Source: Escherichia coli
GTDB lineage: Bacteria > Pseudomonadota > Gammaproteobacteria > Enterobacterales > Enterobacteriaceae
Length of the DNA stretch: 64,000 nucleotides
NCBI RefSeq assembly: GCF_003018255.1
Contig: NZ_CP027440.1
Direction: 5' to 3' (one strand)
Shown here: piece after piece, positions 1,586 to 30,914 of the stretch
Layout: each line of letters starts with the position of its first letter
Position numbering within the stretch: position 1 is the first letter of the stretch
Notes under the pieces: generated by a model
What the model was told of the DNA's origin: nothing
Databases searched by the model: none
Seen by the model: the letters and a program-made list of their open reading frames with translations, nothing else
Made by a program: the position numbers and the translations under genes

Positions 1586-1756
1586 ATGGATAAAGAGCCT
1601 GTTTGCCCTGCCTGTAAGACTCCCTTACAGCTCATCTATCGCCGTTCTCGATCTCAAAATGGCAAGACATACAAACCAAAAAATGCTTCCTGTTTCAGGA
1701 TGCTGATATGTCCTGCCTGTTCTCCCCGGAGGGAAAATACACAAAACGTGCATTAA
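1586..1756 (+). CDS. Small zinc-ribbon protein (CPxC...CPxC), hypothetical
   Basis: 56-aa ORF MDKEPVCPACKTPL...LICPACS with AAGGAG Shine-Dalgarno 8 nt upstream of ATG; opposite strand to the late operon. Confidence 0.5.
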   Translation: MDKEPVCPACKTPLQLIYRRSRSQNGKTYKPKNASCFRMLICPACSPRRENTQNVH

Positions 1757-1794
1757 CAAATTCACCCGGCAGGGAAACCTGCCGGTCGGTATTG

Positions 1795-2040
1795 TTACAT
1801 CATAGTACCGTCAGTTCCGGGTTGAACCGGCTCTGGTTGCTCTACGGGTTGAGGCTCATTTTCCGTGCTGTTTTCAGCCGGAGAACGACCAACCATTCGG
1901 GCCAGCACTTCATCAACATATGCGTCGATTTGTGCCTCAAAATCCTTGCGAACCTGCGCCTTCAGCACGCGGTTCACTTCTTCAGAATAAAGTGCCTGTT
2001 TGACAAGCTCTTCAGTAACCGTGCCTTTAATCTCTGGCAT
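1795..2040 (-). CDS. Hypothetical acidic protein (81 aa), cargo
   Basis: ORF MPEIKGTVTEELVKQ... with Pro/Glu-rich C-terminus; downstream of esterase and small membrane gene on the same strand. Confidence 0.45.
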   Translation of the reverse strand: MPEIKGTVTEELVKQALYSEEVNRVLKAQVRKDFEAQIDAYVDEVLARMVGRSPAENSTENEPQPVEQPEPVQPGTDGTMM

Positions 2041-2075
2041 GAATATTCTCCTTTCCTTTTCTGGTTCACAAAAAA

Positions 2076-2255
2076 TTAAATCTGACCGGAGTCTTTCGGC
2101 TGCGGCATTACAGCACCGCTTTTTATCTTTTCCTCGGCAGCTGCATCAATTTTATTTCGAAAATAATTGCGAATAATTTTATAACCACCGCTGACAAGCA
2201 ACAGACAACAAACCACCGTGCAGAAATACAGCAGGCAGACGTTTATATATGTCAT
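2076..2255 (-). CDS. Small membrane protein (59 aa), hypothetical
   Basis: Hand translation MTYINVCLLYFCTVVCCLLLVSGGYKIIRNYFRNK...; N-terminal hydrophobic helix, GAGG SD upstream; below the 60-aa cutoff of the ORF track. Confidence 0.45.
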   Translation of the reverse strand: MTYINVCLLYFCTVVCCLLLVSGGYKIIRNYFRNKIDAAAEEKIKSGAVMPQPKDSGQI

Positions 2256-2312: not shown

Positions 2313-4361
2313 TTATGCCGCAGGGGTATTAACCTCAAGGACAACGCTCTCAAAAGACACGCCATAAGTTGCCCCTTTGGTGACATCTGTCAGTGTCAGC
2401 GTATCTTTGGCAGGGGAAAGTGCATCTTTCACCATCTGGAATGCCTGGCCCGGAGTGCCATCCAGCACAGGCGTTACCTGGGCACTTCCCGCCGTAAACT
2501 TCAGGACAAGTGTATGCCACTGGTTATTGTAGGCTCCAAATGATCCCAGTTTCGTATTCCCCCCTGTTTTATGGTGCATCAGATTTAACTGGCCGCCTGT
2601 TGTCTGGAGATAATACGCCATCAGGAACGGTGTGCCTGTACCACTCATGGTTACACCTTCCGGGACCGTATCGGTGTGGAGGTAAATACCCAGAGCAAAC
2701 TGGCCTTCTTTTACTTCACCTGACAGACGGAATTTACAGGTCAACTGACCACCATGCTTCAGAAGTTCACCGGCTGCATCAGTTCCATGGGTAAGCGTCC
2801 AGGTTTTTCCGCTTTGTTTGGATACGGTCAACGCTTTACCTTCGTCCGTCAGCTGGATTGTACCATCTGTAATTTTCCAGCCCTGAGCCGGGGCTTCTCC
2901 TGCTGATGCTTTAAGTGAAAGCAGCGTACGGAGTGACGGGGATGTCGGATGGGGGGACTCACTGCCTCCTGGCTGACTACCTGTCGGCGCTTCCGGTTTC
3001 CCACCCGGCGCGGGCTGAGGCAGGGCTTCACCATCAGGGGCCACACCGGCAATAAATGCAGAGGTCAGACCTGCATATTTAAGAATTGCTGATGCAAAAC
3101 GATCTGAGACCAGAAAACGGCGCGCCCAGGAGCTAAAATGGGTTGCCCTGGATGCTGTTGTCCAGTTGCCATCTCCCCGTGATTCCGCACCATAATACCC
3201 GGCAGAAGCGATATCCGGGTCGTGCTCCGGCAGGTTGGTCGCGGTTTTATTACCGAACTCATCGTGCATCAGTGGAACAAAGTGAATGTTCTCGGAAGCC
3301 CGGTTTTTATATCCGCTATAAATGGTTTCATATGCCGCCGGGTTCTTCTCTTTCCAGTCATAGGTTGTGTCACCACATAACCACGGCACACTGTCTGATG
3401 AACCACCAATACACTGACCGGAGAAAGCACCAAGATCCGCACGGAATTTTTTCACCATCGCAGTAAACTGGGCACCATGCTGGGCCGGGGTCGCTTTAAG
3501 GTCTCCTTCCCCCTGAATCCATACGACAGATAACAGCACATTCTTTGGATTCGCCTCAAGTGCCGCTTTAGTTCGACTGACAAGATCCTGATACAGTGGG
3601 GTATCCACTCCCCAGCGTAGTGACGCCTCGGCTGCACCACTTGCCGGATCGAATGAGCCAACTGCGCCGGTTGTAAAAGCAGAGCCGCCACGGGCACAGG
3701 GAACCAGTAAAATCCCGGCATCAGCAGGAATCACCGGTAATACTTTTTTCGCAATATGAAGTCCCTGCCCCACACAACCATACTGCCCTTTTTTCAGGTC
3801 TGCTTTTGGATGGTTCAGCAGACTCATATTCTGAACATCATGAAGGCAGTGATCTGCTGGAATGATTTCATTGTATTTGCAGGGAATACCTCCGGGGGTT
3901 TGTGTATTCCTGCGTGCCAGCTGCATAATACGTGGATCAGGACGATCATAAGAATCCGGAAGGGGCAACCCTTCACCATAAGATGAAGCATTGGACTGGC
4001 CGGCTATAACAATCACGTAATACCAGGAAGGGGAGCTGGAAGCAGTTTCATTTCCTGACGGACGGGTATGTGTTTCAGCATTATCCCAGTCTGACGGTTC
4101 AGCAGTACCGGCAACATCAGCACTTAACGGAATGACCGCACCAATACCCGCTCCGGTAATTTCCACACTCGGATCACCGGATACTGGCCTTACCCACAGG
4201 CAATCCCGTGTATTAAAACTGATGAGACAGTCAGCAAATGTCATTCCTCCTTTTGTTTCGGCCGGAGGAAAGGGAGCCTCAAGAAATGCCGCTGTACCAC
4301 CGGAAACTTTAACAGTAAAGTTTCCGGGCATTGATGATAGTTGAACCCATTTGGACGTCAT
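2313..4361 (-). CDS. SGNH/SASA-family esterase (sialate O-acetylesterase-like) with Pro-rich linker and C-terminal beta-sandwich lectin-like domain; NanS-p-like
   Basis: 682 aa; GQSN nucleophile motif (VIAGQSNASSYG), WIQGEGD block, PQPAPGGKPEAPTGSQPGG linker, Gly/Thr-rich C-terminal domain. Confidence 0.55.
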   Translation of the reverse strand: MTSKWVQLSSMPGNFTVKVSGGTAAFLEAPFPPAETKGGMTFADCLISFNTRDCLWVRPVSGDPSVEITGAGIGAVIPLSADVAGTAEPSDWDNAETHTRPSGNETASSSPSWYYVIVIAGQSNASSYGEGLPLPDSYDRPDPRIMQLARRNTQTPGGIPCKYNEIIPADHCLHDVQNMSLLNHPKADLKKGQYGCVGQGLHIAKKVLPVIPADAGILLVPCARGGSAFTTGAVGSFDPASGAAEASLRWGVDTPLYQDLVSRTKAALEANPKNVLLSVVWIQGEGDLKATPAQHGAQFTAMVKKFRADLGAFSGQCIGGSSDSVPWLCGDTTYDWKEKNPAAYETIYSGYKNRASENIHFVPLMHDEFGNKTATNLPEHDPDIASAGYYGAESRGDGNWTTASRATHFSSWARRFLVSDRFASAILKYAGLTSAFIAGVAPDGEALPQPAPGGKPEAPTGSQPGGSESPHPTSPSLRTLLSLKASAGEAPAQGWKITDGTIQLTDEGKALTVSKQSGKTWTLTHGTDAAGELLKHGGQLTCKFRLSGEVKEGQFALGIYLHTDTVPEGVTMSGTGTPFLMAYYLQTTGGQLNLMHHKTGGNTKLGSFGAYNNQWHTLVLKFTAGSAQVTPVLDGTPGQAFQMVKDALSPAKDTLTLTDVTKGATYGVSFESVVLEVNTPAA

Positions 4362-9671: not shown

Positions 9672-10785
9672 TGAATTTAATCCCCTGTTTTTTCATCTGT
9701 GCCCGCACGAAGGCGTCCACGTCACCCGCATTTCCGCTTCCGCTGTTTCCCGGCTCTGCCGGAACAATAAAGCCGTCACGGGGTGCCAGAATCAGACGGG
9801 TGGTTTCGCCGTGATTTGCATCCAGCGAAAACTCCACCTGACAGACAAGAAGATCACGCTCTTCCACTCCGGTGCGGGGAGCCGTGACAGCCGTCAGCAG
9901 GTTGATATCCCACAACTGGCCGTTCTCCCGAAACCAGTGCCGCACGGTGGCTGTCAGGCGCACAGAGCGGGCAACCGCCCGGCGCATTTCTCGGACAGCC
10001 CTCTGGCGTGCACCGTCTGCATCAACAGCATGATCCGCCAGCACAATTTTCGGTCTGTAACGGTGGATGGCACTGTCTGTCACCGTACCAACGGGTGCGG
10101 CCAGCGTTCCGGCTGTCAGTGCATCCCCGGCATGACCACCACCACGCCCGTGCCCCCGTACACGGTATTCACTGTGGCGCAGACGGTGATCCACGTTGTG
10201 ATCCAAATCCAGCAGATTTTCGCCCAGCGTCAGCGTGTCGCCACGCTGACTGCCGGCCTGAGTGAAAACCAGTTCACCGGCGGCATTACTGGTTACCAGG
10301 ACGCCTCTGTGTCTCGCGGCCCGTGTCAGCGCATCTGCCACGGTTTCTGAGTTTTCCAGTGTGAAGGTGGAAAAGGGCCGGGCTGCCGTTGCATCATTTA
10401 CCTGCCAGCGCACCGTGACCCCGAACGGAGCACACAAATCTGAAGCAATGTGCTCCAGCGTGCGGTTCCTCCACTGGCTGCCCGGATGAATGGCTGAACA
10501 GTCCACCAGGTCACCGGTTTTATCCCGTCCGCTGAGCGTGATCTGAAAACGCGTGGCGCTGATGCGCTGCCGGACCTGATCCAGCCAGCCAGTGATCACA
10601 GGCTGACCGTCAATGCGCAATTCCAGAGACTGACCGGCACGGACGGATGACGGAAGGCGTACACCGGGCATCATTACCCCCAGTTCAAAGGAGCCCGCCA
10701 GATGTTCAAGAGAGCGACGAACACTCACCGTCAGCCAGCCGGAAAAAATCTCACCGCCCAGATACAGTTCAACCCTGCTGCTCAC
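9661..10785 (-). CDS. Baseplate hub protein (Mu P/gp44-like)
   Basis: 374 aa, position after N-like gene. Confidence 0.7.
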   Translation of the reverse strand: MSSRVELYLGGEIFSGWLTVSVRRSLEHLAGSFELGVMMPGVRLPSSVRAGQSLELRIDGQPVITGWLDQVRQRISATRFQITLSGRDKTGDLVDCSAIHPGSQWRNRTLEHIASDLCAPFGVTVRWQVNDATAARPFSTFTLENSETVADALTRAARHRGVLVTSNAAGELVFTQAGSQRGDTLTLGENLLDLDHNVDHRLRHSEYRVRGHGRGGGHAGDALTAGTLAAPVGTVTDSAIHRYRPKIVLADHAVDADGARQRAVREMRRAVARSVRLTATVRHWFRENGQLWDINLLTAVTAPRTGVEERDLLVCQVEFSLDANHGETTRLILAPRDGFIVPAEPGNSGSGNAGDVDAFVRAQMKKQGIKFNDE

Positions 10786-18286: not shown

Positions 18287-19234
18287 TTACAGATAATCCG
18301 CGACAACCAGCTCCAGCTTGCCCTTCATCTCGTTAGAGACGGTTGCGTTTCCGTCTGCGAACAGTTCACGCTCCAGCAGCTGCACCGCCTGTTTTTCCAG
18401 CGAGGTGGGGACAACAATATGGGTGGGTTTGATGCCGAGTTTGCGGCCACCGTCAGCGGTAAATTCGCGCATGGCTGACCAGCCGTGCCACAGTGCATCC
18501 AGCGTCAGCGGTGACTGCATCATGTAGGCCATCTGCCAGAAGCCGTAGCCCACATTGCGACGGGCGGATGCACCAAACACAAATTCGTTATCGGTGAATG
18601 CGCGACCTTCATCGACTTTGGTCTGGGCAACCAGTTCAGCCTTACGGCGATCCTGATAAATCAGCGGTTTGATTGCGCGTGAACAGTCGAGCAGATACCA
18701 GGCAGGACCGCTGTAATCCGCTTGTGCACCGACAGAGCCGGTTTTTGCCACAAACATATTGCTGACCATCTGCGCATCCCCGGAGCCATCCACTTTGGGG
18801 TAAACAGGATGTTCGGTATCAAAGAAGTTCTGGCCGTCATAGCAGGCCGCATTAATCCCGTCACGAAGAGCAGCAAAGACCAGTTCATCCGGTTGTGCCG
18901 CAGCAGCGCGCCCCATCTCCTGGAACAACGGGGAATAAATACCGAGGTTATCGTCTTCGAAGTCATCGCGGTTAATGGCGACGGTGCCTTCAAAGGTTTT
19001 GTTCACGATGGCATAGCCATAGGCCTTCATCTTCTCGATGACGCGGGAGCCGATCCACTCACGGAACTGCGGGAACTGCCCCAGCCAGCCGTAGGTGTTG
19101 GATTTCGACGTGGACGGTACGGTCATCGCAATTTTTTTGTACTGCGACGGGGCCATGGACATCCCGGCCTGAAAATCAGAACGGTAGCCCGTCATCAGGG
19201 CGGTGATCATCGCCGGTGTAATCGGGGTAGGCAT
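18287..19234 (-). CDS. Major capsid protein (Mu T-like)
   Basis: 315 aa downstream of protease/scaffold gene. Confidence 0.85.
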   Translation of the reverse strand: MPTPITPAMITALMTGYRSDFQAGMSMAPSQYKKIAMTVPSTSKSNTYGWLGQFPQFREWIGSRVIEKMKAYGYAIVNKTFEGTVAINRDDFEDDNLGIYSPLFQEMGRAAAAQPDELVFAALRDGINAACYDGQNFFDTEHPVYPKVDGSGDAQMVSNMFVAKTGSVGAQADYSGPAWYLLDCSRAIKPLIYQDRRKAELVAQTKVDEGRAFTDNEFVFGASARRNVGYGFWQMAYMMQSPLTLDALWHGWSAMREFTADGGRKLGIKPTHIVVPTSLEKQAVQLLERELFADGNATVSNEMKGKLELVVADYL

Positions 19235-20358
19235 TATTGCATTTCCTCTTTCATTTTCAGGAACTCGGCTTCGGTTTTACCCAGCAGTTTGGCGGCCGCG
19301 ATATCTTCAGCCGACAGCACAGCGGTGGCAGTCTTTTTATCCGGCACGGTCACGGTGTCGGTCTGAAGGCCGGTCAGGGCCGCAACCGGCTGGCGGGCGT
19401 CAAGCTGTGCAGAAAGTGCCGCAACGCCAATCTGCCCGCCCAGTTGTTCCAGATAGCCGCGTTCGCTTTTGAAGATGCGCCCTTCGGATTCAGCCTTGTC
19501 CAGCACCTGCTCCAGCGTGGTGCTGCCGTGCTGCGCCGACAGCGCAACGTATTCGGTACGCAGGGCGTTATACGTTTCAACGGGCACGTATTTCGTCAGA
19601 TCAATACTGCCGCCAGCCGGTGTGCCTTTTGCGGTTTCCAGCTCTGCCGACAGACTGGCGACCTGTGTTTTCAGGTTGTCGTGTGCATCCGCACGGGTTT
19701 TGATCCCGGTGAGGGCAGACAGCGCCGCCGTGCCCAGCTCCGGCGTAAATTCGTCACCGTCAGCCACGGTCAGACCGAGCGCCGTCAGCAACTGGCGTAA
19801 TTGCTCATTCATGGAGGTATCCTTTAAAGGAGGGTTTAAGGCGTTATAAAGGTCATCCGCCGACAGTGCGGCGACAGGATTCATGCCGGTCAGACCGGGG
19901 TCACCGGTAATAGCCAGCATCCGAAGTTCGACAGGTTCGCCGGTGCTCTCGTCATAGCCAATCACCGGTGAAAACCAGGGGAATTCGTTATTACGCAGAT
20001 GTTCAAGGGCCGGAGGGTTCCACTTCGGGCGCACCTCGAAACCTCGCTCTTCACTGAAGCGAAAATTCTCCGGTGAGGCCATCACAAAACCGGCAGCCGG
20101 TGCCGGATGTCCCTCAATCAGGGTCTGGTGGTTGTAGTCAATTTTCACCGGCTGATTGAGCGCCACAACACGGGAGACCATGCGCTCAACGGCTGCATGG
20201 TTGATCAGCCAGCCCTCGGCCGGTTTTTCCGGGCGACCGTCACGGGCCTTTACCCGACCGGCTGGCATGATCTGACACCAGTCACCGTCCCCGTCTGCGG
20301 ACAGGCTGATGGCATTCAGAATGGCATAAGCAAGTTTGGGCGTGTTTTTCGTCTTCAT
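19234..20358 (-). CDS. Head maturation protease / scaffold (Mu I-like)
   Basis: 374 aa, Ala/Leu-rich coiled-coil C-terminal half typical of scaffold. Confidence 0.8.
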   Translation of the reverse strand: MKTKNTPKLAYAILNAISLSADGDGDWCQIMPAGRVKARDGRPEKPAEGWLINHAAVERMVSRVVALNQPVKIDYNHQTLIEGHPAPAAGFVMASPENFRFSEERGFEVRPKWNPPALEHLRNNEFPWFSPVIGYDESTGEPVELRMLAITGDPGLTGMNPVAALSADDLYNALNPPLKDTSMNEQLRQLLTALGLTVADGDEFTPELGTAALSALTGIKTRADAHDNLKTQVASLSAELETAKGTPAGGSIDLTKYVPVETYNALRTEYVALSAQHGSTTLEQVLDKAESEGRIFKSERGYLEQLGGQIGVAALSAQLDARQPVAALTGLQTDTVTVPDKKTATAVLSAEDIAAAKLLGKTEAEFLKMKEEMQ

Positions 20359-20534
20359 TCCGGCAGCATAGGCCGGGAATTTTCAGGGCGGGTTTTGCGG
20401 GATTTCAGGAAGTGCTTCCAGGGGAAAAATACAAAGGCGCTTCACGCAGATTTTAAAGCCCGTTAAATACAGGTTAGAAAATCACGACACGCGCCTGAAG
20501 GGGGTAAGGTAATGCATTTGCATACCTTAAACAA
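20359..20534 (-). promoter_or_regulatory. Intergenic region upstream of I-like gene, candidate late promoter/terminator
   Basis: 176-bp gap in an otherwise packed operon; near-palindrome aaggtaatgcatttgcataccttaa at ~20497-20526. Confidence 0.3.
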
Positions 20535-21008: not shown

Positions 21009-21129
21009 ATTGCCTCCGTATAAAATATGAATATAAAATAAGCAGGCGGTCAGTGTACGCTTAACTGGTAAAGTCGGTGCCTGCCTCCGGGTGGATCATG
21101 TATGCGGGTTCGACCCCCGCCACTGACCG

Positions 21130-26572: not shown

Positions 26573-26877
26573 TGCGTTTTTTTCCTTACAGCCTGCTCCA
26601 GCAGCAGTTCGTTCTGATAGGAGACAGAGCGGAGCGTGGCGTTCGTGGTTTTCAGTTCACCCCGCAGGGTCACGATTTCCACATTCAGACGGTTGACCTC
26701 GGCTTCTGTCGGCAGTGACGACAGGCGGGTTTCCACCTTCTCAACGCGGTCGGAGAGTTTTTCAAAGGCCTCGCGGGGGACAAACGTTTTGCGCATCAGC
26801 GCCATGAATATCCCGCCAGCGGTTGCCGTCGCCGAAAGGATCGGCACAACATAATCTTTAACGATGCTGACCCACAT
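26569..26877 (-). CDS. Membrane protein (Mu gp25-like)
   Basis: N-terminal TM helix followed by coiled coil. Confidence 0.5.
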   Translation of the reverse strand: MWVSIVKDYVVPILSATATAGGIFMALMRKTFVPREAFEKLSDRVEKVETRLSSLPTEAEVNRLNVEIVTLRGELKTTNATLRSVSYQNELLLEQAVRKKTQ

Positions 26878-27151
26878 GACGGGCCTCCATGATGTTCTGG
26901 CAGTTCACACAACGGATGGCATCCGGCACAGCAACAAGACGTGCGGCGGGGATCTCTCCGCCACAGTCCGCGCAGACACGTCTGCCCGGAGCATCCATTG
27001 CCCGGCGCTTACGTGTCAGCCGGTTACAAAGGGCGCGTTCTGATCCCCGCTCCATCACAGCCTGAGCACGATCTGAATCATCCATACCTTTTTCCTTACT
27101 TCGTCTTTCCTGCCGGAACAGCAGGCGTTCCGGCCATATCAGTAAATTCAT
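26858..27151 (-). CDS. TraR/DksA-family C4 zinc-finger protein
   Basis: CADCGGEI...RCVNCQ C4 motif. Confidence 0.65.
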   Translation of the reverse strand: MNLLIWPERLLFRQERRSKEKGMDDSDRAQAVMERGSERALCNRLTRKRRAMDAPGRRVCADCGGEIPAARLVAVPDAIRCVNCQNIMEARHVGQHR

Positions 27152-27467: not shown

Positions 27468-27819
27468 TCGTGGCCGCCTCACTGATTTGTGAAATGAGTT
27501 GCAGGGTGTGCTGCTGATTTGCCAGCACCTGACGCGCCTCATCCCGCTCACGCACAAGCACCTGATTATTGTCTTCAAGGCGCTGCGTCTTCTGGTGCAT
27601 TCCCCATATAGCGGCAACCAGTACAGCGATAATCCCCAGCGCCGCCATGCACGCCCCGGCAATCAGGGCCGGTAAGGCATTATTCACCGCAGCCACAGGA
27701 CACCCCGTAACAGCAGTACCGCACACAGCAGCGCTATCATGAGCGGTCGCCAGAAGCGGTTCAGACTTTCGGCAAGTCGTAGCGACATAACCATTCATCC
27801 GCCGAACGGCGGGCCTCAA
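27298..27819 (-). CDS. Putative i-spanin (Rz-like); true start probably downstream of track start
   Basis: TM segment LPALIAGACMAALGIIAVLVAAIWG followed by coiled coil; directly after endolysin. Confidence 0.55.
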   Translation of the reverse strand: MRPAVRRMNGYVATTCRKSEPLLATAHDSAAVCGTAVTGCPVAAVNNALPALIAGACMAALGIIAVLVAAIWGMHQKTQRLEDNNQVLVRERDEARQVLANQQHTLQLISQISEAATNEKQQNIQHSEGQQSVVRRSLAAVPAASAPVPDDVADRVRRAVCEIRACEAGADPR

Positions 27820-28261
27820 GGCCGGGGAGTTTCACCCCCTTTGAATAAATCCAGCGGATATACTGCTTACAGGACGCGGGCATCTGCCCGGCATTGATCA
27901 GGCGCAGAAGCGTGGAGTTGCGAAAGTTCGTTTCACCGGCCCAGAAGATCCACGAAGCCAGCGCCACCGTCTGACCACGGGTAAGCGGCACCTGAACACG
28001 CCGATCAATGGCCGCAAAGGCCCATTTCATGTCCTTTTCCAGTAGTTCCAGGCATTCTTCATCTGTCAGGGTCATACCCGGTTTCACATCCGGGCCGGTA
28101 TGGCCGTAACAGATGGTGGGTGTACCGGAGGGATCGATATACGTGGAGTTTTCTTTCCCTTCCCAGTAACCGGTGTAATGCGTGGCAATCGTGAACGTCC
28201 CGGCACCGGCCAGAACAAGGGCAATCAGCTTTTTACGCAGTGGTGCGGGGAGTTTTGGCAT
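27761..28261 (-). CDS. lys: Endolysin (lysozyme) with SAR-type N-terminal signal anchor
   Basis: 166 aa with N-terminal LIALVLAGAGTFTIA hydrophobic segment as in Mu SAR endolysin. Confidence 0.85.
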   Translation of the reverse strand: MPKLPAPLRKKLIALVLAGAGTFTIATHYTGYWEGKENSTYIDPSGTPTICYGHTGPDVKPGMTLTDEECLELLEKDMKWAFAAIDRRVQVPLTRGQTVALASWIFWAGETNFRNSTLLRLINAGQMPASCKQYIRWIYSKGVKLPGLEARRSADEWLCRYDLPKV

Positions 28262-28262
28262 T

Positions 28263-28300
28263 GTTACGCTGTCTCATGATGTTCTCTGAGTCAGCGTAAC
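28263..28300 (-). promoter_or_regulatory. Inverted repeat between mor/C-like gene and lys (candidate late promoter activator site or terminator)
   Basis: gttacgctg (28263-28271) ... cagcgtaac (28292-28300), 9-bp arms. Confidence 0.3.
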
Positions 28301-28332
28301 GGTGAAGGAGAGGCGGCAGGCTTTGCGGAATA

Positions 28333-28758
28333 TCAGAAAAGTGGCGGTTGCGTTCTTGCCAGATGCAGACGGCGCTGTTCGCGTATGACGGTATAAATCT
28401 GGGTTTCTGACATCCGGTAATGGCGGCGAAGGGATTCAATTTTCTCGCCCCGGTCCCAGCGCGAAAATATCTCATTGTTTCGCAGCTCGGCAAAGAGAGA
28501 TTCCCCGACCGGCAGGTAATAACCCCGTCCGCCCATATAGGCTGCCTGAGCCGCAGCCACCTTGCGTGCCAGTTTACCGGCCAGTACCGGCTCAATCCCC
28601 TGACGCTGAAGTTCTGCGCCGGTGACTTCAACCAGTTCTGACAGGGTCCGCGGCCAGTTCTTTTTGAGAACATCATCAGGGATGTCATCAAGGCGGTCGA
28701 TAAGGGCGTGCAGTTGCTCACTGTCACCACCAAACATGCTCATCTGAGTTTCTGCCAT
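28333..28758 (-). CDS. Mor/C-family transcriptional activator
   Basis: 141 aa with C-terminal HTH; resembles Mu Mor. Confidence 0.8.
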   Translation of the reverse strand: MAETQMSMFGGDSEQLHALIDRLDDIPDDVLKKNWPRTLSELVEVTGAELQRQGIEPVLAGKLARKVAAAQAAYMGGRGYYLPVGESLFAELRNNEIFSRWDRGEKIESLRRHYRMSETQIYTVIREQRRLHLARTQPPLF

Positions 28759-28827
28759 ATCAGCCTCCGGTTCTCGCGTTCCCGGTAAGTTTAAAATAAA
28801 AATCCCGCGTTGTGGCGGGATTTGGAG

Positions 28828-29337
28828 TTAACGGGGAAGTGATTTTTCATACTGCCTGCAAACGGCGTCATACCCCATCAGCGTGCGTTCGGGCATTCCC
28901 ATCGCGGCCAGCATTTTGCGGCGGTGCCATCGCTTGAGACGCTCCAGCACATCTGAGGCCAGGGCGGGGTGTTGCTCCAGCCACTGCCAGTTTGCCACAC
29001 CTTCGCCGCCGTTTTGCGCGGCCGTCTGCGATTTCACCCAGCGGTTAAGGGCGGTTTCCGCACCATCGGTGATAAAGCCCTGCCGGTGCATCACCTTCCA
29101 GATGGCGCGAATTTTGGCGGTCACCGTACCCGGTTTTAAGGCCCGGTTAACCGGGTTCTGACGCACTTTAAAACCGCGTTTTTTGAAAACATCCAGCACG
29201 CGGGATAACTCATCCGGTGACATATCCCGGCAGCTGGTTTTGCCGGTGGCTGCCAGCAGCGCGGATGTATAAGTCTCATCATCCAGGGCAAGCTCGCGCT
29301 TTGCCACATGAATGGCGGATATCAGTTTTCCTCTCAT
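28828..29337 (-). CDS. gemA: GemA-like protein (Mu gp16)
   Basis: 169 aa; position immediately upstream of mor-like gene. Confidence 0.7.
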   Translation of the reverse strand: MRGKLISAIHVAKRELALDDETYTSALLAATGKTSCRDMSPDELSRVLDVFKKRGFKVRQNPVNRALKPGTVTAKIRAIWKVMHRQGFITDGAETALNRWVKSQTAAQNGGEGVANWQWLEQHPALASDVLERLKRWHRRKMLAAMGMPERTLMGYDAVCRQYEKSLPR

Positions 29338-30184: not shown

Positions 30185-30366
30185 TTATGTTTTCCAGTAA
30201 TACGGATATATATGTCGATAAGAAGATTCATAATAAACAGGAAGAGCGACATCCTGATAAAGAACCAAATATCTGGCATCATGGACAGGTTTCCTGTAAT
30301 CGCAAATATAACCCCCCCCCCCAACACCGGAACGAAAATTGCGAAAAATACAAGTCTCTTTATCAT
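30181..30366 (-). CDS. Small two-TM membrane protein containing an 11-nt poly-G tract
   Basis: MIKRLVFFAIFVPVLGGGVIFAI...; C11 run on plus strand at 30312-30322. Confidence 0.5.
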   Translation of the reverse strand: MIKRLVFFAIFVPVLGGGVIFAITGNLSMMPDIWFFIRMSLFLFIMNLLIDIYIRITGKHK

Positions 30367-30914
30367 GGCGTTAACTCCCGTAATACAGCGTCCTCGGCAG
30401 TCCGGCGATGGTGATAAATAAAATTCACCGTACTCTCGGATAATTCAAATTTCTCGCCTATTTCCCGGAAGGTAAGACGTCGTGGTGATTCAGCATCCCG
30501 TAATTCACGAATAAGATGAACATCATCGTCAGGTATACGGGTGAAGGGCAGCAATTCTCCGTATTTTTTCATGCTTACGCCAATATATCGCGCCCGATTG
30601 TGGACAGAATCCCGGTCTCGCCCCAGATATTCTCCTATTTGCTTACCGGTCATCGTTCTGGCATTTTTTCGGATAAATTTATCTTCATCATGTTTAAATC
30701 TTGGACGTTTGCATTTGAGCAACTCCGGGTAAGTACCGCGTAATAAAACAATCCGGTTATGTACACCCCAGAAACTTCTTTTTACCCTGACAGCAATATC
30801 CTTAACCGGGGTGGATGGATAAAGCGCAATCAGCAGCGCATCTTCTTCAGGTGTCCACGCACGGACATGAGCAGGTGCCTGACCTTTTCGCCCCATGGGT
30901 TGTAAAATCATCAT
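30363..30914 (-). CDS. Hypothetical early protein with C-terminal HTH-like segment
   Basis: LTFREIGEKFELSESTVNFIYHHRR helix-turn-helix-like. Confidence 0.5.
   Translation of the reverse strand: MMILQPMGRKGQAPAHVRAWTPEEDALLIALYPSTPVKDIAVRVKRSFWGVHNRIVLLRGTYPELLKCKRPRFKHDEDKFIRKNARTMTGKQIGEYLGRDRDSVHNRARYIGVSMKKYGELLPFTRIPDDDVHLIRELRDAESPRRLTFREIGEKFELSESTVNFIYHHRRTAEDAVLRELTP

Follow-up and report, generated by a model that had tools for sequence, protein, structure and literature searches.

The Mor and C activators of bacteriophage Mu belong to a family of small proteins with an excess of acidic residues in the N-terminal half and of basic residues in the C-terminal half (PMC2582627). Members of the family work with the host sigma-70 RNA polymerase at promoters without a −35 hexamer. 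In Mu C, the conserved residues of the linker are 70G, 71G, 75Y, 77P and 79G (PMC2582627). The two activators bind at similar positions on their promoters, about −30 to −56 overall (PMC2582627, PMC4287176), with C protecting −30 to −55 (PMC2582627) and Mor protecting −56 to −36 (PMC2582627, PMC4287176). A 10-bp match between the Mu promoters Plys and PI has been documented (PMC4461284). Mu-like phages with a single member of the family have also been described, and the published annotations of KS10 and Fc02 list a single mor gene (PMC2628397, PMC9936078).

The locus considered here lies in a 64,000-nucleotide stretch of an Escherichia coli genome (contig NZ_CP027440.1), referred to as the window. 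The minus strand of the window carries a Mu-like prophage of 38.7 kb that extends from mom/com (~300–1300) to the repressor (~38600). Its genes are syntenic with those of Mu from B through mom, but the Mu genes without a counterpart include mor and the middle-operon genes gp18–20. The prophage is ~99.9% identical to Sp18 of E. coli O157 Sakai (“prophage Sp18, Mu-like phage”), and 230 of 5426 complete E. coli genomes, most of them O157:H7, have prophages that match the region around the activator gene at ~99.9% identity. In Sakai Sp18 the activator gene already carries the annotation “positive regulator of late transcription protein.” Prophages of the Sp18 type reach 4 copies per E. coli genome and are also found inside Stx-converting phages, which suggests that the element transposes. 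Their lytic switch is of some practical interest, since Shiga-toxin-producing E. coli often carry them and Stx prophages serve as insertion targets.

The Mor/C-family activator and its copy number

Three adjacent genes define the region in which the activator is found:
28333–28758, minus strand: Mor/C-family activator gene, 141 aa, C-type by sequence and position
28828–29337, minus strand: gemA homologue (Pfam GemA, E = 3.2e-30; 44% identity to Mu gp16), the last gene before a terminator-like hairpin
27761–28261, minus strand: endolysin gene lys (Pfam Phage_lysozyme, E = 8.4e-37; 39% identity to Mu gp22), the gene that immediately follows the activator

The activator falls within the size range of about 100–150 aa that was used for family membership. 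It matches Pfam Mor (PF08765) across profile positions 2–107 of 107 (E = 2.8e-32; 111 bits against a cutoff of 24.9) and PHROG 532, “late transcriptional activator” (E = 3e-45). Residues 1–70 include 12 acidic and 8 basic side chains, and residues 71–141 include 8 acidic and 12 basic ones. The linker MGGRGYYLPVG carries the GG..Y.P.G pattern of the family; in an alignment of 129 sequences G76 and Y81 never vary, while G77 and P83 are nearly invariant.

Within the family, the protein is, on sequence and position, the counterpart of Mu C rather than of Mor, with a predicted function in late transcription. A full-length comparison with Mu C gives 39% identity (105 bits; 141 versus 140 aa), but only 27% of positions are identical in Mor (52 bits), and C genes are its best phage matches. 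It shares with Mu C the Pfam family, the position before lys, the GG..Y.P.G linker and a C-terminal helix-turn-helix (HTH). The gene lies directly upstream of lys, at a distance of 71 nt, and 69 nt from gemA, which it does not overlap. The mor gene of Mu, by comparison, overlaps gemA and lies upstream of the hairpin at Pm, whereas here the sole activator gene is downstream of the hairpin. The absence of mor and gp18–20, together with the C-like length and position, indicates that the protein retained is the late-type activator. Mu C differs in having a Mor-dependent middle promoter upstream and a terminator before lys, and this prophage has neither. Middle-promoter expression dependent on Mor is a trait of Mu C that is missing here, as no Mor-type gene was found in the prophage.

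The first-pass annotation of this DNA had described a single Mor/C homologue between gemA and lys, and three kinds of search confirmed this by returning no second one. With phmmer, using the activator, Mu Mor and Mu C as queries against all six-frame ORFs of the window, the next-best match had an E value of at least 0.1. A profile HMM built from 129 diverse members scored the activator at E = 2.8e-49 and the next sequence in the window at E = 3.7. Among 20 small prophage ORFs compared with the same profile by hhalign, the activator had a probability of 100% and the others at most 3.8%. As a positive control, phmmer and the family HMM both recover Mor as well as C in phage Mu.

It had also been suggested that a second activator might be concealed among the early proteins, for example in the HTH-containing product of 30363–30914. 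This part of the proposal fails. In the hhalign comparison 30363–30914 reached a probability of only 3.8%, and the AlphaFold model of its product (pLDDT 84.7) shows 3-helix repeats, three in number, and no beta-strand linker. A Foldseek search of the model against the PDB gave no significant match, and Mor was absent from the top 50. The protein is a member of PHROG 323 (“transcriptional regulator, D5-like”), its homologues are Myb/SANT-like, and one relative is gp9 of Mu, which Mu encodes in addition to Mor. It was rejected as a Mor/C homologue on its PHROG family, its homologues, the model and the Foldseek result; it could be an unrelated regulator of another kind.

The first-pass annotation had set the one activator here against the two of Mu; in the wider survey, one activator is not unusual. 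A tblastn search with Mor against 50,697 phage records matched 99 places in 85 records, and two Mor/C places occur in only 14 of the 85, all of them Muvirus (Mu, D108, SfMu and other members). Five complete genomes searched with the family HMM (Klebsiella Kp4866-3, E. coli PhiKM, Vibrio martha 12B12, BcepMu and Shewanella MuM16-1) yielded a single copy apiece, and relatives with an activator 43–57% identical to this one also carry one copy each within the 10 kb searched on either side. In Klebsiella phage Kp4866-3 the copy that has been kept is of the Mor type, and there is no C. BcepMu (gp1), KS10 (gp27), PhiKM, MuM16-1, martha 12B12 and Pseudomonas Fc02 all have their one Mor/C gene after gemA, as here (PMC2628397, PMC9936078). 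In most of these phages, unlike the Sp18 type, this gene overlaps gemA and closes the early operon; Vibrio martha resembles the Sp18 type in having a hairpin with a T-run between the two genes.

Outside the genus Muvirus, Mu-like phages thus have one Mor/C activator as a rule, and the Mor-to-C cascade of Mu is an exception among transposable phages that is confined to that genus. A single activator is ordinary; the protein is of a familiar kind, the prophage is a known one, and nothing found or predicted here would upset the current view. Of the original interpretation, the idea of one activator acting in a circuit without a separate Mor step survives as the simplest reading of the single homologue, and the two accompanying proposals, an inverted repeat as its binding site and the HTH ORF as a homologue, do not.

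The prophage is a mosaic when 28305–28760 is compared with lineages L004 and L005. Between the lineages gemA is ~95% identical and lys 93–100% identical, while the activator gene, measured in 30-nt windows, has 67–87% identity and its 5′ leader no more than 60%. On the downstream side, the exchange boundary is located just upstream of the inverted repeat at the lys start.

Predicted late promoters and a shared 24-bp box

A candidate binding site for the activator is offered by a 24-bp box that occurs upstream of both lys and the I-like gene:
28315–28338, minus strand: box upstream of lys, TTCTGATATTCCGCAAAGCCTGCC, overlapping the activator stop codon; candidate activator site at about −52 to −29
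28293–28298, minus strand: −10-like hexamer TACGCT of predicted Plys, exactly 16 nt after the box
20387–20410, minus strand: other copy of the box, TCCTGAAATCCCGCAAAACCCGCC, in front of the I-like gene and conserved in lineage L015
20365–20370, minus strand: −10-like hexamer TATGCT of predicted PI, 16 nt after the box and 6 nt before the I start codon (20358)
19234–20358, minus strand: I-like head protease/scaffold gene, 48% identical to Mu I, the first gene of a predicted second late operon

The two boxes are identical at 19 of 24 positions and are the only two strong copies in the window; no convincing copy is found upstream of the P-like or com genes. The ungapped similarity between the lys and I upstream regions was matched by 2 of 2000 shuffles. 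The lys box is also kept in relatives in which the region of the activator gene is only ~73–87% identical. If TACGCT and TATGCT are taken as the −10 hexamers, the box lies at about −52 to −29 and falls in the zone that C and Mor protect in Mu. The stretch TACGCTGAC–TCAGAGAA near predicted Plys aligns with the −10 and start region of Mu Plys, TAGACTGCCATCAGAGAA. Like the Mu C targets Plys and PI, the predicted targets have a −10 hexamer, no −35 and an upstream box with an ATCCCGC-like core. The 24-bp box is a better candidate for the activator site than the inverted repeat.

Three other lineages each have their own box common to the lys and I upstream regions; L020, among the lineages with such a shared box, differs in that the first gene after the activator is not lys. 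The boxes of these three lineages contain an AAWCCC core 19–20 nt before a −10-like hexamer, and Mu Plys has AATCCC 21 nt before TAGACT. The ATYCCGC core of the box in the window is 6–8 bp farther from the −10 than is AATCCC in Mu, L016 and L017, and AAARCC is the only element at the position equivalent to that AATCCC.

The I promoter has a further predicted property. The start codon of I lies exactly 6 nt after the hexamer in four lineages (the window, L016, L017 and L020), and the N-terminus of the I-like protein aligns with that of Mu I. The hexamer–N6–ATG arrangement predicts a leaderless I mRNA. A leaderless mRNA for this gene would be unusual, and this counts against the explanation preferred below.

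Several other sequence features were noted. The window contains 13 occurrences of the 9-mer AWATYCCGC where 3.3 are expected, and none of 100 shuffles reaches 13. All 13 copies (14115–35992) are inside the prophage, on both strands and mostly in coding sequence. The intergenic region between G and I (20359–20534, 176 bp) is 95% conserved in a relative with an activator gene ~73–87% identical, and it opens with a hairpin (TAAGGTATGCAAATGCATTACCTTA). The equivalent interval in Mu holds the strong gyrase site. The region upstream of com (1285–1480) is unlike Mu Pmom, and only ~40 nt separate its GATC cluster from the com start codon. Two divergent ORFs, 1359–1706 and 1708–2079 (plus strand), have an 18-nt palindrome at their start (1345–1380).

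The inverted repeat at the lys start

The other candidate regulatory element upstream of lys is an inverted repeat:
28263–28300, no strand assigned: inverted repeat with arms of 14 nt each (28263–28276 and 28287–28300), 13 of 14 positions complementary, 10 nt between

The repeat had been noted earlier with 9-bp arms; it is real and larger than described. It is the only repeat of its quality in the 38.7-kb prophage, and shuffled prophage sequence yields 0.23 such repeats per 38.7 kb, or ~4e-4 when scaled to the 71-nt intergenic region. Its arm sequence has no other occurrence in the prophage, the I upstream region included. On the coding strand, the 5′ arm (28287–28300) contains the −10 hexamer and covers about −14 to −1 of predicted Plys, and the 3′ arm (28263–28276) ends 2 nt before the lys AUG, with the whole repeat extending from about −14 to +24. 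A scan of the window found no terminator-like site between the activator gene and lys, while Mu has a predicted terminator between C and lys (10383–10406).

The two possible lys transcripts differ in their predicted folds. RNA that reads through from upstream would fold the repeat at −21.6 kcal/mol (z = −3.56; none of 200 shuffles as stable), whereas RNA from the predicted lys +1 reaches only −2.9 kcal/mol and is unstructured. By analogy, the repeat most likely acts as an RNA hairpin like that of T4 gene e, which would silence lys on read-through transcripts. In T4, the early read-through transcripts of gene e sequester the ribosome-binding site, and late promoters located in the 5′ strand of the hairpin give translatable RNA; genes soc, 49 and I-TevI show the same type of translational control as is predicted here (PMC3014915). 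As predicted, lys of this prophage would share with gene e a hairpin over the ribosome-binding region on upstream transcripts and a promoter in the 5′ strand. The phages are unrelated, and the T4 late promoter is of the gp55 type whereas the one here is predicted to be an activator-dependent sigma-70 promoter.

Repeats of unrelated sequence occur at the same position in L017 (z = −3.2) and L020 (z = −4.3), although the fold outcome for L020 varies with the exact start site. In L016, the −10 hexamer TATCCT pairs with the Shine–Dalgarno (SD) sequence AAGGAG in a weak structure (z = −1.65). Related phages appear to have counterparts of the predicted, transcript-dependent block on endolysin translation, with sequences of their own. 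The perfect conservation of the repeat among close E. coli relatives was rejected as evidence for selection; it is uninformative because the repeat lies inside the lys block, which is 93–100% identical. Rfam has no known RNA family for the repeat or for the hairpin next to gemA.

Two readings of the repeat as a DNA element have to be set against the RNA hairpin. The first-pass annotation had taken it for the site at which the Mor/C protein binds and activates lys. As a strong, statistically rare dyad adjoining lys, the repeat would suit Mor and C, which both bind dyad-symmetric elements (PMC2582627, PMC4390567), yet its position speaks against this: relative to the one plausible −10 it runs from about −14 to +24, right up to the start codon of lys, and Mor/C sites lie between −30 and −56, centred near −43.5. 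It also spans 38 bp as compared with the 16-bp Mor element. Its arms have no match in the I upstream region or elsewhere in the prophage, which makes it a poor candidate for a site common to late promoters, and a better candidate exists in the 24-bp box. The unrelated sequences of the repeats at the same position in other lineages fit an RNA structure better than a conserved protein site, and a role as activator site is quite improbable. Alternatively, the repeat could be a DNA operator for a repressor or host factor, or a cruciform, that occludes the −10 and start of lys. The overlap with the predicted −10 and +1 is the usual position of an operator. However, no candidate binding protein is known, the other late promoter has no second copy, and the corresponding structures of L017, L020 and L016 have other sequences, yet all of them pair the −10 region with the region where translation starts; this reading is unlikely.

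The gemA–activator junction and the proposed circuit

How the activator gene is itself expressed depends on the short interval that separates it from gemA:
28790–28823, minus strand: intrinsic-terminator-like hairpin, AAATCCCGC-CACAAC-GCGGGATTT followed by a T-rich run, from a terminator scan, an inverted-repeat scan and RNA folding
28788–28816, minus strand: candidate activator-gene promoter, GCCACA (28811–28816), a 17-nt spacer and TAAACT (28788–28793)

The hairpin has a 9-bp stem with 5 G–C pairs and a 6-nt loop and is followed by TTATTTTAAA, and a strong SD also follows it before the activator gene. The −35 position of the candidate promoter is inside the hairpin. The hairpin is conserved in relatives and is duplicated on both sides of inserts in L003, L017, L061 and L062. 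Six lineages that differ in their activator alleles have TATAAT, TATACT, TATATT or TAAACT after the T-run, and the AATCCC of the hairpin 5′ arm lies 20–23 nt before this hexamer, mostly 21 as in Mu Plys. The varying spacing of 20–23 nt is loose for an activator-dependent promoter. Conservation of the hairpin arms loses weight as a sign of a specific protein site, given that 106 of 120 viral contigs carrying this generic type of hairpin have no Mor/C gene.

The sequence gives a weak suggestion of a promoter embedded in a terminator, possibly of the late-promoter class, which would mean autoregulation. Mu Pm also encloses a predicted terminator, and it resembles the junction here in having a terminator-like hairpin with a T-run just before the −10 at the boundary of the early and next operons. 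An exact match to the geometry of Mu Pm and its terminator fails, the hairpin centre being at about −30 here and not at about −38. Elsewhere among the relatives, the lone activator gene either overlaps gemA or lies tightly within the early operon, so that co-transcription with the early genes is a frequent arrangement. The most economical explanation for how the activator might be expressed here is leak-through of the terminator.

Two further accounts concern the circuit as a whole. A two-step cascade might have been kept if an early product outside the Mor/C family, the 30363–30914 protein or GemA, activates the promoter of the activator gene. This would fit with a terminator-like hairpin that divides gemA from the activator gene and is followed in six lineages by a good −10 with a poor −35, and 30363–30914 does encode a predicted DNA-binding early protein in a PHROG annotated “transcriptional regulator.” On the other side, Mu has a homologue of this protein in gp9 and yet needs Mor (PMC2582627), no candidate site for the 30363–30914 protein was found, and several relatives have the activator in the early operon or overlapping gemA, where a promoter of its own is unneeded. 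A kept cascade of this kind seems improbable. That the prophage is a regulatory cripple which lost mor, with an arrangement that has no function, is very improbable. Sakai Sp18 is not induced by mitomycin C, but neither is Mu, and Sp18 is judged intact by prediction (PMC2669165). The same arrangement is moreover present in 230 E. coli genomes at up to 4 copies, in Stx phages, in divergent lineages and in isolated phages.

The explanation favored here, and held to be somewhat probable, is that the sole Mor/C activator of the Sp18-type prophage is the counterpart of C, acts at the predicted box promoters, is expressed by leak-through and is coupled to an RNA hairpin at lys. The activator would switch on sigma-70 late promoters that have a −10 but no −35 hexamer, and would bind the ~24-bp box at roughly −52 to −29. 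Two target promoters are recognizable, Plys (28315–28338, TACGCT) and PI (20387–20410, TATGCT), and transcription from PI would start at the A of the I start codon. The first activator molecules would probably come from early transcripts leaking through the hairpin downstream of gemA, after which the hairpin-embedded promoter GCCACA–N17–TAAACT may add transcripts and may be self-activated. Middle and late steps would in this way collapse into one activator. With no terminator after the activator gene, its transcripts would run on into lys, and on these the repeat hairpin would cover the lys ribosome-binding region. Transcripts started at Plys would lack the 5′ arm and would be translatable for lys.

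A more elaborate version, in which a self-priming activator replaces the Mor-to-C cascade and is combined with a terminator–promoter module, a lysis block like that of gene e and a leaderless head-operon mRNA, is possible but doubtful. If it is true, premature lysis would be blocked by a hairpin that carries the lys promoter in its 5′ strand, as compared with the terminator of Mu. The modestly interesting by-products of the analysis, all of them predicted, are a C-type operator box at two promoters, a translation block on the endolysin and a leaderless mRNA for the head operon.

The gemA–activator junction (28759–28827) is also an insertion hot spot, at which related prophages carry cargo genes. 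The inserts include two small ORFs in L003 (2057–2845), a 140-aa signal-peptide protein in L017 (9376–10000) and, in L018 (8312–9887), an antisense cassette of three genes that includes one for a TIR-domain protein; L016 has an insert as well. Within the window, a 682-aa cargo gene absent from Mu (2313–4361, minus strand) lies between gin and com and encodes SASA (sialate O-acetylesterase-like) and DUF6645 domains. Between the F-like and G-like genes, on the opposite strand, 21049–21128 (plus strand) matches the Rfam tRNA family at 31 bits against a gathering score of 29; RefSeq lists it as “tRNA-OTHER,” and ARAGORN finds no tRNA there.

A gene for a TraR/DksA-type zinc-finger protein (26858–27151, minus strand) follows the lysis genes and is found at the same position in most related prophages and in Vibrio martha. 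Mu gp24, at the equivalent position, has no Pfam match. Proteins of the TraR/DksA type can act on RNA polymerase, and the product of 26858–27151 could be an additional late regulator.
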